Source: a phage. Taken from it: a stretch of DNA of 64,000 bases. Positions 2,127 through 39,182 of this stretch are shown here, one piece after another. Where the stretch lies: sequence record PZ445448.1; one strand, given 5' to 3'. The notes beneath the pieces were generated by a model, which was given only the letters and a program-made list of their open reading frames with translations, was not told the origin of the DNA and did no database searches. The position numbers were made by a program, and so were the translations under genes. Positions within the stretch are counted from its first letter, which is position 1. The number at the start of each line of letters is the position of its first letter.

Positions 2127-3349
2127 GCGTTATTCAACAATTCGCTAACCCGATGAATCCGCGTGAAACTGTTTTACTGGCTCACGGCATGATTAAACGC
2201 GTCAGCATCAAGCCTATCAAAGGTGCTGATCCTACAACAGGTATTAAAACCACTGTGTGGCAAGGTAAGAAAATTGAATCCAGCCACACCATCTCTTTAC
2301 TGATTTCTGAACTGGATTCCTCTGATAACCTACTTCAAGGTGGTGAAGAAGTTTGGATCAGTATGGGCGATAAGCTGCTTAAACCGGGTCATCAAGACTC
2401 TGTCTCTGTTAAAATTGATGACAAGTGGGAAACCGTAACGCCAGGATGGATCGTAAATATCCCTTTGAAGGCAAACGAGCATAACGGTAAGACCTACTAC
2501 AAAGGCTCACTGGCTAAGATGGTTAAGCTGGGTGCAGGAGAGGCTCCAGCAGCGACTCAGCAGCAAAAACAGCAACAAGGTGCACAATCACAAGGCCAGA
2601 AGCAGAAACCTCAGCAGAATGCCAATCAGGACGTTTTACGCATCTATGGTGATGTGACTCAGATTGTTGGCAACGTGGTTACTGTAAATGATCACAAGAT
2701 TGGCGAAGGTGCTATGGTTGTAACTGATGAGCAGCTTAAAGACCTGGTGGTAGGTGGTCGTGTTGCAGCCATTGTGGACAAAGACACCGGAAACATTATC
2801 AGTGGTTTCAAAGCCTACCCACCTAAGGCAGAGAACGGCACTCAAGGCCCTGGTGGCAAGCGTAAATCCTCTTACGACCCTATTGGTGTGGAGACGGGGC
2901 ATAGCATCAATGCGTTGCAGATCATCCTGGATCGTGGGTTTAAGGTAGACGACCCACTAGGCGTGGCTAAAACACTGCACGTAGTCACCATCGAGCTTAA
3001 GAAAGAGTATGCTCAAGCCACCAACCGAACTGAAGATGAAGTAGGTGCCAGTGTCGGTAATGCGGTGTTGAACGCTTGTCGCCGTATTGACAAGAAAACG
3101 AAAGTTGATGATTTTGCAGCGGCAATTACTGCAGAAGCAAAAGATGTCTTGACTAATCTGGCTGAGCCGTTGTACGATTGGATCAAGAACGGTGCTGGGT
3201 CAACTGACCATCAAGAACCTCAGGCTGCCAAACAGGAAGCAGCTCCACAGCAAAACACTGTAGACGCTCCTCCTGTAAATGATGGGGAAGATGACCCGAT
3301 GGATCAGAATCCAGCACAGTATGACTTCTGTGATGACATACCGTTTTAA
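2123..3349 (+). CDS. SSB-like protein with Gln-rich linker and C-terminal YDFCDDIPF tail
   Basis: C-terminus DFCDDIPF matches the conserved acidic tip of bacterial SSB (DFDDDIPF); ATGA overlap with upstream gene. Confidence 0.55.
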   Translation: MSVIQQFANPMNPRETVLLAHGMIKRVSIKPIKGADPTTGIKTTVWQGKKIESSHTISLLISELDSSDNLLQGGEEVWISMGDKLLKPGHQDSVSVKIDDKWETVTPGWIVNIPLKANEHNGKTYYKGSLAKMVKLGAGEAPAATQQQKQQQGAQSQGQKQKPQQNANQDVLRIYGDVTQIVGNVVTVNDHKIGEGAMVVTDEQLKDLVVGGRVAAIVDKDTGNIISGFKAYPPKAENGTQGPGGKRKSSYDPIGVETGHSINALQIILDRGFKVDDPLGVAKTLHVVTIELKKEYAQATNRTEDEVGASVGNAVLNACRRIDKKTKVDDFAAAITAEAKDVLTNLAEPLYDWIKNGAGSTDHQEPQAAKQEAAPQQNTVDAPPVNDGEDDPMDQNPAQYDFCDDIPF

Positions 3350-5117: not shown

Positions 5118-5318
5118 ATGGAGACTAAAATCTTAATTCTGGCTGTGATAGATACGACCGAAGGGGCCGTGTTCGAATCTGCAGGAGGGTATTTCTACCT
5201 GCCCTACGGAAAAATAACTTCCGAACCGAGTAAAGATTCAATCCTTAAAGTGTTCCCTTGTGCTTTCTGGCTGGAGATTCTAGTAGAAGATTGCAGAGGA
5301 TTGGGGAGAGAATTATGA
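5118..5318 (+). CDS. hypothetical small protein
   Basis: ATG after GAGAGGGAGC SD. Confidence 0.4.
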   Translation: METKILILAVIDTTEGAVFESAGGYFYLPYGKITSEPSKDSILKVFPCAFWLEILVEDCRGLGREL

Positions 5319-5509
5319 GAAACAAGAAAGAGCTTTATTCTGGCGAGTGGATCAACGATCAACAGGTCGGAGAGGTAACCTGCTTCCGGTGTTTTACTCG
5401 GTACAATCTTAAAACTGCACCAAAAAGTGTTCCAAAGACTGACGGTTATTACATAAAAGAACCTCATTGCCCAAAATGTAAATGCCGATTGTACTGGAGC
5501 AATCTATAA
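5315..5509 (+). CDS. zinc-ribbon small protein (CxxC...CxxC)
   Basis: ATGA overlap with upstream gene; TCFRCF and HCPKCKC motifs. Confidence 0.45.
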   Translation: MRNKKELYSGEWINDQQVGEVTCFRCFTRYNLKTAPKSVPKTDGYYIKEPHCPKCKCRLYWSNL

Positions 5510-5513
5510 GAGG

Positions 5514-5541
5514 TTGACATCTGAAAACTGCAGTGTATAGT
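5514..5541 (+). promoter_or_regulatory. sigma70-like promoter TTGACA-N16-TATAGT
   Basis: -35/-10 hexamers. Confidence 0.45.
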
Positions 5542-5572
5542 ATACGCATAAACTAACAGAGAGCGATGTATT

Positions 5573-5764
5573 ATGGTAATTTTTAACCGGGATGGTATCA
5601 TAGTTAGACAGCACCCGTTCCTTGAATACTATCAAATTGAGCAATGGTGCTACGGGGATTGCAGTCACTCCTATGGGCAAAGTTGGGGATATCGCACAGT
5701 TTTTGAATCAACAGACCTTGACAAAGTAAGACAGAAAGTTTTAGAACTTATTAACAACAAGTGA
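5573..5764 (+). CDS. hypothetical small protein
   Basis: ORF downstream of promoter. Confidence 0.45.
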   Translation: MVIFNRDGIIVRQHPFLEYYQIEQWCYGDCSHSYGQSWGYRTVFESTDLDKVRQKVLELINNK

Positions 5765-5773
5765 GTATGATAT

Positions 5774-6106
5774 ATGGTAACATTAGAAAGACGTAAAGCT
5801 ATCGCCGCCACACTGGCAGACATCTTTTGGGATTGCAACTTAAAAGATACCAGAAATTGTGGCGCATCTGTAGATGTATTATTCCCACGGCCCACCATTG
5901 TTGCAATGGGAAACCTGTTAAACGTAGTGTACGGAGCATGGGACAAAGAAGGTGGATTCTATATCTGGCAACCTGACTACGGAGCCTGGAAAGAGGTAAG
6001 GGGTGCGGATGACTTTGGGCCTACAGTTGCTAAGATGGATGGCTGGGAAATTTATGTTGGAAACGACATGAAGCTGAAAGGCGAGATTGTTTACTGGTTA
6101 CCTTAA
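5774..6106 (+). CDS. hypothetical protein
   Basis: ORF in array. Confidence 0.45.
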   Translation: MVTLERRKAIAATLADIFWDCNLKDTRNCGASVDVLFPRPTIVAMGNLLNVVYGAWDKEGGFYIWQPDYGAWKEVRGADDFGPTVAKMDGWEIYVGNDMKLKGEIVYWLP

Positions 6107-35626: not shown

Positions 35627-35977
35627 TTACTGCAACAGTTTTTCAATAGCCGCTTCCATGCTGCTTGCAACAGCCTGAACTCGGATATTCATCTCTTCTT
35701 GGTGGATCAGCTCCTTAAGCTCTTTAATGGTAAATTCTTTAGAGAAACCTTCCACCATAATCTTGTGCAAAGATTCTTGCGTGTCTACTTGCAAGAACTT
35801 TTCCAGTTTGTTGGCAGAGGCTTCTAAATCAGCCCGAATACGAGGGTCATCTGTGCGATTCAGCATTAGGCGTAAGCCATCAAGATTAGTAGAAATAGCA
35901 TCTGCATGTTGAGTAACTAACCGTGGCAAAATGATGTCTACAAACTTATTAGCCAAATCGATACGTTCTTGTGTCAC
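35627..35977 (-). CDS. hypothetical protein (GTG start)
   Basis: ORF overlapping upstream stop. Confidence 0.4.
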   Translation of the reverse strand: MTQERIDLANKFVDIILPRLVTQHADAISTNLDGLRLMLNRTDDPRIRADLEASANKLEKFLQVDTQESLHKIMVEGFSKEFTIKELKELIHQEEMNIRVQAVASSMEAAIEKLLQ

Positions 35978-36087
35978 TGTTGCACCCCCTCTTCATCTTC
36001 ATGATGTTTCTTTTCACGCTTGTGTTTTTTCTTAAGCTCAAGCGCAATCTCTTTCTTGTACGCCTTCTTCAAGGCTTTTTTAGCCAT
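35974..36087 (-). CDS. small basic protein (37 aa, Lys-rich)
   Basis: GAGGAGGTGCCAA-ATG; below ORF-track size cutoff. Confidence 0.4.
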   Translation of the reverse strand: MAKKALKKAYKKEIALELKKKHKREKKHHEDEEGVQQ

Positions 36088-36118: not shown

Positions 36119-36148
36119 ATTATACCTATCTAAACAAAGCTTTGTCAA
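36119..36148 (-). promoter_or_regulatory. sigma70 promoter TTGACA-N18-TATAAT (minus strand)
   Basis: consensus hexamers upstream of 36087 start. Confidence 0.5.
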
Positions 36149-36151
36149 CAA

Positions 36152-36625
36152 CTAGTCTACCTGAACCCAACCGCCTGATACTTTTTTAAACATTCTTTGG
36201 TTATCACTGCCTCGGAACGGTTTCTTGGTTGGTAAATCTTTTACATACTTACCGTCAATGATGATATCAGCCAGTTTAAGAACATCACTAGAGATATGGT
36301 CAAATGTGAACCCAGTATATACAAGAATAGTTTTCTTGTCACCAAATTTTTCCTTAATTTTCTCCATCAGGCTAATAATATCTGGCTCATTATAGTATGC
36401 TAAGGGTTCTCCACCCAGCAGAGAGATACCGCACACAGACGGGTTATCTAAATCTGACAAGATTTTTTGCAAGTCTTCTTCAGTGAACTCCCTCCCCTTA
36501 TCTTTTGACCAAAATGCCTGATTAAAGCAACCAGGGCAAGCGTGTGGGCACCCAGATACCCACAAGGCAGTTCTAATACCTGGCCCTTCGGTGTAAGATA
36601 TTTCTGTGTATCCGACAATGTTCAT
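36152..36625 (-). CDS. nrdG: anaerobic ribonucleotide reductase activating protein (radical SAM)
   Basis: CPHACPGC radical-SAM cysteine motif; adjacent to nrdD. Confidence 0.75.
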   Translation of the reverse strand: MNIVGYTEISYTEGPGIRTALWVSGCPHACPGCFNQAFWSKDKGREFTEEDLQKILSDLDNPSVCGISLLGGEPLAYYNEPDIISLMEKIKEKFGDKKTILVYTGFTFDHISSDVLKLADIIIDGKYVKDLPTKKPFRGSDNQRMFKKVSGGWVQVD

Positions 36626-36738
36626 AGATACTCCGCATCACATTTAGGGCAATGCCAAATAAAATCGTCTAGTGCCTTGCACCAACGAAGATTGCAACTA
36701 CATCCGCACTTGCAAATTTTATAAATACCTGATGACAT
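36622..36738 (-). CDS. Cys-rich mini-protein (38 aa), probable zinc ribbon
   Basis: AGGAGGTG SD; CKCGCSC...C...HCPKC; stop overlaps nrdG ATG. Confidence 0.45.
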   Translation of the reverse strand: MSSGIYKICKCGCSCNLRWCKALDDFIWHCPKCDAEYL

Positions 36739-36801
36739 ACTGCACCTCCTAGCTCACTGTGTGTCAATAATATGCCACATCCTTGTGGCTTTTGTCAAGA
36801 A

Positions 36802-38010
36802 TCAGCAACCACAACTTCCGTAGTGCTTAACTCGCTCGATAACTTCCGCTTGCTTACCTTTATTGTAAGGACGGGAGTTAGGACTGGAAAGATATCCAGA
36901 CACTCTTCGGATCACTGAGATATATTGTTCATCGTGGCATCCGCACGCAGGGCAGCAGAACCCTTTAGCTGTTGCACTGAACTCACCAGAGAAACCACAC
37001 TTGAGACATTTATCCACAGGTTGGTTAATACCAAAATACATAATGTGTTTATACCCGAAGTCAACAAGAGCCTCTAAAGCATCCAAGTTGTTTTTCAGGT
37101 TAGGTGTCTCTACGTATCCGATGTTGCCACCAGAGGAGATCATAGCAAAACCTTCCTCATACTCCCACTTATCAAAAGGAGAGCTATTTATCCATACTGG
37201 CTGATGGAAACTGTTGGTGAGATATTCATGCTCGTGCTTCAACACTTCCGGATATTCACGATCCAGACAGGTTGCAGCTTTATAGCATAGACTCTCAGAA
37301 GGAGTGCCGTACAAGCTAAACGCTAGTCTACTTTCCTTCTTGTATCGCTCACAAGCATCTCTCATGTGCTGAAGGATTCCAAGAGCTAAAGCCTTGTCAC
37401 CCTCTCTACCCAAAATCTGACAGGTTTCATACACACCAATATACCCAATACTGATGGAAGCGTACCCGTCATAGAAGAGTTTATCAATACTCTCTTCAGG
37501 ATCCAGGCGAGCAAGAGCTCCTTCACACCACATGATTGGGTTCTGCCCTGCCTTTGTTCCTTTTAGACGGTTAACCCTTACAAGGTGAGCCTCGTATGCA
37601 AGATCCAAGTATTCGTCAAGAACTGCAAAGAAATCAACACCTTCCGTCTTAGCTTTTGCCGCAATCATTGGTAGGTTAAGGCTAACAACGCCTAAGTTAA
37701 ATCTGCCAAGATATTTCTCCTCGCCTGTTTCCAAGTCACTGTATTTGCTAAGAAAACTCCGGCAACCCATGCTCGTTACTTTGCCATCTGTCGAGCCTGT
37801 CACTTTTCTATTTAGTGGTACAGATACGAAGTCAGGGTAGATACGTTCTGCACAGCATTCCAGAGCTAATCGTTTCAAATCATAGTTAGGATCCTCAGGG
37901 TTCATGTTGACACCCTCTTCTAGGAAGAACAGCACTTTAGGGAACACAGGTGTGATCCGTTCTTCACCAAGACCCATTTTGTGGACTTTCAAGTAATTTT
38001 TGGTAATCAT
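36802..38010 (-). CDS. nrdD: anaerobic ribonucleoside-triphosphate reductase, C-terminal exon (boundary approximate)
   Basis: C-terminal CCPACGC zinc site and glycyl-radical-type RRVSGYL motif. Confidence 0.7.
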   Translation of the reverse strand: MITKNYLKVHKMGLGEERITPVFPKVLFFLEEGVNMNPEDPNYDLKRLALECCAERIYPDFVSVPLNRKVTGSTDGKVTSMGCRSFLSKYSDLETGEEKYLGRFNLGVVSLNLPMIAAKAKTEGVDFFAVLDEYLDLAYEAHLVRVNRLKGTKAGQNPIMWCEGALARLDPEESIDKLFYDGYASISIGYIGVYETCQILGREGDKALALGILQHMRDACERYKKESRLAFSLYGTPSESLCYKAATCLDREYPEVLKHEHEYLTNSFHQPVWINSSPFDKWEYEEGFAMISSGGNIGYVETPNLKNNLDALEALVDFGYKHIMYFGINQPVDKCLKCGFSGEFSATAKGFCCPACGCHDEQYISVIRRVSGYLSSPNSRPYNKGKQAEVIERVKHYGSCGC

Positions 38011-38318
38011 TCTACCAAAGACCGAGGTATCCAGTCCTAAACTTAATGTGATAAAAGGGGTTTGCGGTCCCCACCCTTATGTTTCCACAAGGCCAGACTA
38101 TCTCTTGCCTGAAATCACACCGTGTGATTCTTAATCAGACCCCTGCGTTTCGGAATCTTCCATAATCCCTACACCAAAAGGTTAGTCGTTACAACCGCCT
38201 CACTCCTTGTGAAGCTAGTCACGGGATTGGCATAGCTTTCGCCTTAGCGTTCCCCGTTAGCCAGCGATCAGCTGACCCCTCATACTAAGGTTAGCAGAGT
38301 TTTAAAACGGCCAGTTTG
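38011..38318 (-). other. candidate self-splicing group I intron interrupting nrdD (exact splice sites not determined)
   Basis: about 308-bp ORF-less GC-rich hairpin-dense insert between two halves of nrdD; AGATAGTCTGG element; ACCTCGGT repeated at both flanks. Confidence 0.5.
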
Positions 38319-39182
38319 TTAACCGTTTACCGAGGTTAGTGTGTTGATCTGATAAAGCAACGTCTGCATGCTGTCAAACACGTCTTTATCTGTCATTTGC
38401 ATTGCAACAGTCTCAGCATCTGGCAACCAATGTTCCTGGCAAAATTTAAGGTTCTTCTCATAAGTCGCCTCAGCATACTGTGCCAAATAATGGTCAATAT
38501 GGCTCATAGTCTGACCCCCATATTGAGCACTAGCTACTGCACTAGAGATTTGGCTAAGGATTGTTGTTGCAACCCCTATTGACTTCGGCTTACTGACATG
38601 GGCGTTACCAATGTTGAATCCGTTTTCCAACATATCTGGATAATTTACCAAACAACAGTTTGTTAACGGACTGATCAAGTAGTCAAGATCATGCACATGG
38701 ATGAAGCCTTTATTGTGCTCTTCTGAAACACGGTCTGGCAGGATCTGTGTTGATGCAAGGTGTTTGCTAAGGATGCCTGCAAGCAGGTCACGATGAGTGT
38801 GTACATGATTGGTAGGCTTATTTGCGTTTTCTTTTGTAAATTCATCACAAGTTCGATCCAAGAAGCCACTAATATCTGCAAGCAGTTTTCCACCTGCCTC
38901 TCTGTTATTATCTCTTGTCTGTCTATACTGGATGTATTCTCTGGCTGCACATTTTAAACCCATATCCATAAGAGCATCTTCAACAAGGATATGGATATTT
39001 TTTACAGAGATCGTGCACTGGTCGGTTGGTAGATTGTTAGCAACAACTTCATTAACCGCGCAGGCGATCCGGTAAGCTTCTTCTTCAGTATGTCCAGACT
39101 CAAGTAAGGCGGACTCTGCCGCCTTGATCACCTTAATTCCGTTATAGAACTCTTCTCTACCGTCCCGTTTTACAACTTTCAC
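38319..39182 (-). CDS. nrdD: anaerobic ribonucleoside-triphosphate reductase, N-terminal exon (boundary approximate)
   Basis: N-terminal ATP-cone-like segment MKVVKRDGREEFYNGIKVIKA; in-frame stop lies inside the presumed intron. Confidence 0.7.
   Translation of the reverse strand: MKVVKRDGREEFYNGIKVIKAAESALLESGHTEEEAYRIACAVNEVVANNLPTDQCTISVKNIHILVEDALMDMGLKCAAREYIQYRQTRDNNREAGGKLLADISGFLDRTCDEFTKENANKPTNHVHTHRDLLAGILSKHLASTQILPDRVSEEHNKGFIHVHDLDYLISPLTNCCLVNYPDMLENGFNIGNAHVSKPKSIGVATTILSQISSAVASAQYGGQTMSHIDHYLAQYAEATYEKNLKFCQEHWLPDAETVAMQMTDKDVFDSMQTLLYQINTLTSVNG

Follow-up and report, generated by a model that had tools for sequence, protein, structure and literature searches.

Ribonucleotide reductases (RNRs) of other classes are served by small redox partners encoded within their operons, such as YfaE, NrdH and NrdI. 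To our knowledge, no small accessory partner of this type has been described for class III RNR. The phage microprotein considered here is likewise small, possibly metal- or redox-active, and encoded within an nrd operon, but it has no sequence or fold relation to YfaE ferredoxin, NrdH or NrdI. Moreover, its co-occurrence with nrdD and nrdG is neither necessary nor sufficient.

Free-standing zinc-ribbon microproteins are a known kind. The CPxCG-type zinc-finger micro-proteins, including HVO_0758 of Haloferax and ZifS of Thermus, fall in the same size class as the phage protein, carry two knuckles of which one is C-P-x-C, and are likewise predicted to form a small beta-ribbon. Both were among its near-matches in fold and sequence searches, although all of these matches were below threshold (E 0.2-4) and do not establish homology. 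Compared to the CPxCG proteins, the phage microprotein has three additional cysteines, of which C13 and C15 are invariant and C20 nearly so, and its 38-aa form differs in having C-x-C as the first knuckle. The C-terminal Zn ribbon of NrdD also shares a layout with it, C-x2-C-G ... aromatic-x-C-P-x-C-G.

The gene lies in a stretch of 64,000 nucleotides of phage DNA (record PZ445448.1), hereafter the window, which at this locus is 99.9% identical to the phages vb_EcoM_bov10K2 and EmilHeitz and belongs to an rV5-like coliphage (Vequintavirus). The genes and translation signals of the locus are:

36802..38064, minus strand: nrdD exon 2, encoding the glycyl-radical domain and C-terminal Zn ribbon, upstream neighbour (from Pfam and comparison with intact nrdD)
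36743..36750, minus strand: Shine-Dalgarno sequence AGGAGGTG of the microprotein gene, 8 nt, consensus (from the sequence)
36622..36738, minus strand: microprotein gene, 38 aa with seven cysteines, PHROG 20137 (from the ORF list and sequence, PHROG profile, pN/pS and tblastn)
36631..36634, minus strand: GGAG within the last microprotein codons, a weak Shine-Dalgarno sequence of nrdG, 5 nt before the nrdG ATG (from the sequence)
36622..36625, minus strand: ATGA overlap of the microprotein TGA with the nrdG ATG, two bases being shared (from the sequence)
36152..36625, minus strand: nrdG, encoding the activase of class III RNR, coupled cistron downstream (from Pfam and annotation in relatives)

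The geometry of the locus agrees with the original prediction in most respects. Sequence and ORF list both place a 38-aa ORF before nrdG at these coordinates, and reading its 38 codons gives MSSGIYKICKCGCSCNLRWCKALDDFIWHCPKCDAEYL. A Shine-Dalgarno sequence had been claimed, and the consensus AGGAGGTG is indeed found 4 nt before the ATG (6 nt when counted from the GGAGG core); its AGGAGG is unchanged in all five Vequintavirus sequences compared. An in-frame TAG lies five codons upstream with no start codon in between, and therefore the ATG at 36738 is the sole possible start. The overlap between stop and nrdG start was also as predicted, with the TGA at 36622..36624 and the nrdG ATG at 36623..36625. 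The cysteine count, in contrast, had been put at eight, while the peptide has seven (C9, C11, C13, C15, C20, C30 and C33). The flanking genes were identified by Pfam matches of the nrdG product to Fer4_12 (9e-43) and Radical_SAM (8e-10), and of nrdD exon 2 to NRDD (8.5e-105) and Gly_radical; the exon boundary was set by comparison with intact nrdD.

The ORF had also been described as unannotated. However, it is already catalogued in GenBank, NCBI, UniRef and the PHROGs, and hence is not new as an ORF. An identical protein is listed as hypothetical protein QOC57324.1 in bov10K2, the exact sequence recurs in NCBI under CUL03106.1, QEG04578.1 and other accessions, again as 'hypothetical', and UniRef holds it as an uncharacterised Vequintavirus protein (e.g., A0AAE8AYV3). 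It matches PHROG 20137 with an E-value of 4.7e-30, with residues 1-38 on profile positions 1-38 of 38. Our literature search did not find a paper on this protein.

Several of the existing annotations appear to be in error. Records covering the microprotein locus carry the names 'putative anaerobic ribonucleoside-triphosphate reductase' and 'putative minor capsid protein' in GenBank, but searches of Pfam, NCBIfam and PDB sequences backed none of these names and found no similarity to RNR families. Judged by these family searches, the 'ribonucleotide reductase' label of PHROG 20137 and GenBank is unfounded, the name having been taken from the neighbouring genes. The Murica record has no CDS at the position of the microprotein gene. 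In rV5, ORF114 (L005 2436..2663; DQ832317 87773..88000) spans the gene in a different frame. Correction of the unfounded label, the wrong frame in rV5 and the omission in Murica is a useful outcome of the analysis.

The microprotein frame itself bears a clear mark of selection. In a codon comparison of seven homologues from four lineages, pooled pN/pS was 0.11 in this frame, while the two other frames gave 1.07 and 2.53. Between lineages, pS ranged from 0.5 to 1.0, which is near saturation, while pN was only 0.03-0.14; variation was seen at 20 of 29 third codon positions and at three of the 29 second ones. An alignment of 38 distinct variants from databases and metagenomes points in the same direction. 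The six cysteines C9, C11, C13, C15, C30 and C33 never vary, and neither do K7, K10, G12, L17, R18, W19, D24, D25, W28, P31, E36 and Y37, whereas C20 is substituted in two of the 38 variants (by R and S). H29 is exchanged for Y among the variants, and hence is not a metal ligand. The low in-frame pN/pS and the invariant residues together argue that the peptide sequence itself is under selection. At the level of codon evolution, these data demonstrate that the ORF is a real, strongly conserved phage gene under purifying selection.

The alternative frames can be set aside. The frame of rV5 ORF114 did not show purifying selection, and the overlapping alternative frame is interrupted in the window, where a 32-aa ORF with a TTG start remains (36669..36767); pN/pS was at least 1 in both other frames. 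Fusion to nrdD by read-through can be excluded as well. Both ORFs share a frame in the window, yet two stops lie between them, and in rV5 and locus L007 they are out of frame with each other.

Because the microprotein stop overlaps the nrdG start, ribosomes that finish the microprotein are positioned for reinitiation on nrdG. Judging from this geometry, termination-reinitiation at the ATGA would carry ribosomes from the microprotein onto nrdG. In this lineage, the microprotein-nrdG junction replaces the direct nrdD-nrdG ATGA of most other phages. Yet, nrdG has its own GGAG, present near the microprotein 3' end in all aligned homologues, and the coupled partner of nrdG in rV5-type genomes is a different ORF, of 78 aa. 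It could be argued that the ORF is chiefly a translational coupling device that loads ribosomes onto nrdG, with a peptide that is itself irrelevant. The consensus Shine-Dalgarno sequence upstream, the weak GGAG as the only such signal of nrdG and the ATGA overlap would all fit such a device. We nevertheless regard it as very improbable, as strong purifying selection holds the amino-acid sequence against a background of saturated synonymous sites, and the peptide is kept in rV5, ime and L067, where it is uncoupled from nrdG.

The distribution of the gene is narrow but informative. A tblastn search found the microprotein in 121 phage records, of which 120 are Vequintavirus or 'Campylobacter phage' entries that are nearly identical to Vequintavirus. 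In about 120 Vequintavirus records it lies between nrdD and nrdG, in one of two arrangements. In the arrangement of the window the ORF is ATGA-coupled to nrdG, and in 85 of 119 records the match to the 751-nt query extends over 80% or more of its length. In the rV5-type arrangement the microprotein ORF ends in TAA and is followed by a 34-aa ORF, a 78-aa ORF (phrog_3249) that overlaps the nrdG start, and a divergent nrdG that is 54% identical to that of the window. The window and rV5 are homologous across nrdD and the microprotein gene; this homology halts 4 nt past the microprotein stop and resumes in the last third of nrdG.

The same nrdD-microprotein-nrdG order was found in a sister clade that consists of metagenome assemblies only (contigs of 136-140 kb; loci L007, L008, L012 and L067). 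Its microproteins come in a form of 54 aa, with a Lys/Glu-rich N-terminal extension, and a form of 41 aa. The 4-nt ATGA overlap with nrdG is also present in L007, L008, L009 and L012, while in L067 a 34-aa ORF sits between the microprotein gene and nrdG.

Elsewhere, the gene is the exception. The microprotein gene is present in only two of 56 diverse IMG/VR nrdG loci, L009 and L012, and in most of these phage loci the nrdD stop overlaps the nrdG start directly, as ATGA. The microprotein was not found in the related contigs of ~140 kb L011 and L013, nor by tblastn in Phapecoctavirus-like isolates with nrdDG. Overall, it occurs in only 121 of 2085 phage records with NrdG homologues. Since most phage nrdDG loci lack the microprotein, the gene is not needed for a working phage nrdDG pair.

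These patterns bear directly on the claim that the microprotein is an accessory to the anaerobic RNR or its activase. If it were a dedicated class III RNR accessory, its binding partner would be NrdG or the C-terminal region of NrdD, and it would help or tune glycyl-radical activation. It could serve as an adaptor or a chaperone; alternatively, it could donate electrons to the [4Fe-4S] cluster of NrdG in the manner of a miniature rubredoxin, through an Fe(Cys)4 site. Translational coupling would supply it in a fixed ratio with NrdG. In line with this idea, every myovirus occurrence lies between nrdD and nrdG, and the ATGA coupling to nrdG is seen again in a second clade, although the NrdG proteins of the two clades are only ~52% identical. 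Furthermore, conservation of the microprotein core between the clades (88%) tracks that of the C-terminal, glycyl-radical domain of NrdD (85%) rather than that of NrdG (52%). Yet, the gene is missing from most of the nrdDG phages sampled, including L011, L013 and the Phapecoctavirus-like isolates, and in rV5-type genomes and L067 its coupling to nrdG is lost. A near-identical peptide is paired with two nrdG alleles that are 54% identical, and the alleles it accompanies share only 52-54% identity. Thus, the evidence is mixed: gene order in two myovirus clades speaks for the claim, whereas the patchy and separable occurrence of the gene, and its presence in the podovirus ACG-C91, speak against the rest. 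Gene order makes a link with RNR plausible, but the link is clearly not obligatory, and we consider a dedicated accessory role rather doubtful.

ACG-C91 is a 43.7-kb SP6/K1E-like podovirus (Vectrevirus) and provides the sole match outside the myoviruses. Its homologue, MSVFKICKCGCRCNLRWCKALDDVIWYCPKCNTEYL, is 77% identical by tblastn, matches PHROG 20137 with an E-value of 4.9e-23 and is unannotated in the GenBank record. The gene sits between a nucleotide kinase and a DNA ligase gene and is ATGA-coupled to the ligase, a location that weighs against a dedicated RNR accessory; annotation of nrdD or nrdG is absent from the ACG-C91 record in the region examined. DNA homology with the window is restricted to 36728..36618, and the ATGA overlap at 36622..36625 is the recombination breakpoint with respect to both rV5 and ACG-C91. 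With homology confined in this way, the gene moves as a self-contained cassette that persists without phage nrdDG. On this sequence comparison, it is shown to behave as a portable cassette between unrelated phages.

The slot between kinase and ligase in K1E/SP6-like podoviruses holds interchangeable, unrelated tiny ORFs (L004 3999..4108; L065 699..815; L066 699..872). Alignment of Vectrevirus genomes indicates ORF-precise replacement, from a common ATG to a common ATGA, with a CxxC...CxxC protein in K1E, a protein without cysteines in vB_EcoP_B and the microprotein in ACG-C91. The K1E protein also has 38 aa and two knuckles, yet it is not homologous to the microprotein (hhalign 11%); the vB_EcoP_B protein, with 57 aa and lacking cysteines, is unlike it altogether.

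An alternative explanation of such mobility might be that the gene encodes an exchangeable microprotein for host takeover or counter-defence, with no relation to RNR, and that the nrdD-nrdG junction merely tolerates insertions that are then kept by collinearity. This would account for the patchy distribution with its cross-family transfer to a podovirus, and for a Vectrevirus slot that holds three unrelated tiny ORFs at one ORF-precise position. It would also be consistent with mosaic breakpoints at the end of the microprotein ORF and with the nrdD region as a hot spot of mobile DNA, with a group I intron in the window and HNH genes in L008 and L067. However, the two contexts in which the gene is known, both of them nucleotide or DNA-precursor modules, are not typical early host-takeover blocks, and searches of PHROG, Pfam, NCBIfam and PDB did not find similarity to known anti-defence or takeover proteins. 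We therefore consider this explanation unlikely.

What kind of protein the cassette encodes can be approached from its fold. Two cysteine knuckles, C9-x-C11 and C30-P-x-C33, are present in all 38 variants, although the first is C-x2-C in the 41- and 54-aa forms and C-x-C in the 38-aa form. An AF2 model from a shallow alignment (mean pLDDT 65.7) has three short strands, at residues 16-20, 25-30 and 35-37. All Foldseek matches of this model in the PDB are of zinc-ribbon type (Rpb9, the Nudix N-terminal ribbon, ZifS, HVO_0758 and ELOF1), with a best E-value of 0.68. Sequence searches did not find a curated zinc-ribbon family above threshold: the best Pfam match was zf-LITAF-like (E 0.029; 15 bits versus a cut-off of 23.8), and NCBIfam and PDB sequences gave sub-threshold matches to generic ribbons only. 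A profile search of 1.84 billion representative proteins returned three clusters, of which two were the microprotein family and one a spurious repeat protein; by these searches the family is narrow and without a characterised relative. Hence, the zinc ribbon of the original prediction agrees with our results as a generic fold in AF2 and Foldseek, but not as a significant fold match or as membership of a curated family. We infer a generic zinc-ribbon fold from the model, most likely stabilised by metal, putatively zinc.

The second knuckle, W-x-C-P-x-C, resembles rubredoxin-type knuckles, which would suit an electron donor to NrdG. In contrast, a Pfam match to rubredoxin was lacking at E<=10, and hhalign gave only 22.8% over nine columns, confined to this second knuckle; membership of the rubredoxins was therefore rejected. 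An origin as a duplicate of the NrdD ribbon was considered as well. Hhalign matched the microprotein to the C-terminal ribbon of NrdD with a probability of 78-82%, above 200 column shuffles. However, rubredoxin reached 95% and the unrelated K1E slot protein 77% in the same comparison; scores against the NrdD ribbon profile (A6) were 25.2 for the microprotein (A5), 36.8 for rubredoxin and 24.1 for the K1E protein. Because the controls match the NrdD ribbon equally well or better, the likeness reflects generic knuckle chemistry and is not evidence of duplication. HMMER did not find a match of the microprotein to NRDD.

Weighing these results, we favour, with a probability of about 55%, a predicted metal-binding zinc-ribbon microprotein that is portable and belongs to the nucleotide-metabolism module. 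With 38 residues and six invariant cysteines, it is probably too small to be an enzyme. It would be a cytoplasmic microprotein of ~4.3 kDa with a metal-stabilised, zinc-ribbon-like fold, encoded in the nucleotide-metabolism block of rV5-like phages. As a characterised homologue is lacking, its mode of action can only be inferred. Most likely, it binds a partner that is available in E. coli with or without phage nrdDG. Candidate partners would belong to dNTP supply or DNA-precursor metabolism, with NrdD or NrdG, of phage or host, first among them. Since E. coli itself encodes NrdDG, a host target is possible for the microprotein of ACG-C91 as well.

A bolder version would make the microprotein the first dedicated third component of class III RNR, a 4-kDa Zn or Fe(Cys)4 ribbon. 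It would then dock on NrdG or on the glycyl-radical domain of NrdD, and either donate electrons or stabilise the activation complex. Action on the NrdDG of the E. coli host would account for its persistence in a podovirus that lacks nrdDG. We consider this version improbable, but any role in RNR, if true, could add an unrecognised factor to anaerobic ribonucleotide reduction. Although the peptide is as conserved as the catalytic domain of NrdD, its gene travels between unrelated phages as a cassette. Should it prove to have a partner in dNTP supply, the microprotein would offer a rare example of a functional phage microprotein; if there is no such partner, it would be one more small conserved phage gene.

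The 63-nt spacer between nrdD and the microprotein gene holds a hairpin and an overlapping promoter-like match:

36774..36789, minus strand: intercistronic hairpin GCCACA-AGGA-TGTGGC (from a scan for terminator-like structures)
36769..36798, minus strand: sigma-70-like promoter match, TTGACA-18-CATATT preceded by a TG, in overlap with the hairpin (from a consensus scan, 10/12)

The hairpin is unchanged in all five Vequintavirus sequences. In L067 it has an identical loop with one stem pair flipped and L007 has a different hairpin, while none was found in the spacers of L008 and L012; because it is missing from these two, we rejected the idea that it is a universal part of the microprotein unit. 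By consensus, the hairpin is a putative, terminator-like expression signal. The promoter-like match is also unchanged within the five Vequintavirus sequences and was not found in sister-clade spacers; it is a putative promoter by consensus match. A 'terminator' annotated within the microprotein ORF of Murica was rejected as a weak stem in coding sequence. Just past nrdG, a 12/12 sigma-70 consensus, TTGACA-18-TATAAT, occupies 36119..36148 (minus strand) at the position of rV5 promoter P118. After this match comes an ORF of 37 aa, rich in Lys (35974..36087, minus strand), that is hypothetical in relatives.

Upstream, the nrdD gene of the window carries a 257-nt group I intron (38065..38321, minus strand) without an endonuclease gene. 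Rfam RF00028 gave a full-length match at 38075..38331, an offset of 10 nt, with 29.8 bits (gathering score 50) and an E-value of 6.8e-5. The last nucleotide is U in exon 1 and G in the intron, and removal of the intron yields a 707-aa NrdD of which 704 residues are identical to the uninterrupted Murica protein. The bov10K2 record annotates the two exons as separate CDS. In the sister clade, HNH-type endonuclease genes divide nrdD into two or three parts (L008 1588..2541 and 5279..5971; L067 2699..3172), and one of these endonuclease genes ends 29 nt before the microprotein gene.

The 34-aa ORF that follows the microprotein gene encodes a basic and hydrophobic peptide, MRKSIKKIKIKLLALKRKYKKLYGFIKWTFISLS, and occurs in the rV5-type locus L005 (2633..2737) and the sister-clade locus L067 (5142..5246). 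Its block is 87% identical at the DNA level between the clades, versus about 69-74% for nrdD. The 78-aa phrog_3249 protein (L003 3381..3617; L005 2769..3005), which overlaps the nrdG start in the place of the microprotein, carries the label 'putative minor capsid protein' without support. Eighteen GenBank 'Campylobacter phage' records (MG0656xx, host Campylobacter jejuni) are 96-98% identical to E. coli Vequintavirus at this locus, which suggests that they are mislabelled or contaminating coliphages.

Zinc-ribbon ORFs beside nrdG do not appear to be a recurrent theme elsewhere, as the 56 loci contained one further lineage only and the other candidates were NrdD fragments. In this unrelated phage lineage (L029-L031), a 114-aa protein (2160..2504) with a C-terminal CSYC...CPNC ribbon is ATGA-coupled to nrdG, and an 88-aa CPVC...CTKC protein (2997..3263) is encoded just downstream. 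Within the window, only one other small ORF starts with ATG and has both an SD-like motif and a pair of cysteine knuckles (CFRC ... CPKCKC); it encodes 64 aa and lies at 5315..5509 on the plus strand.
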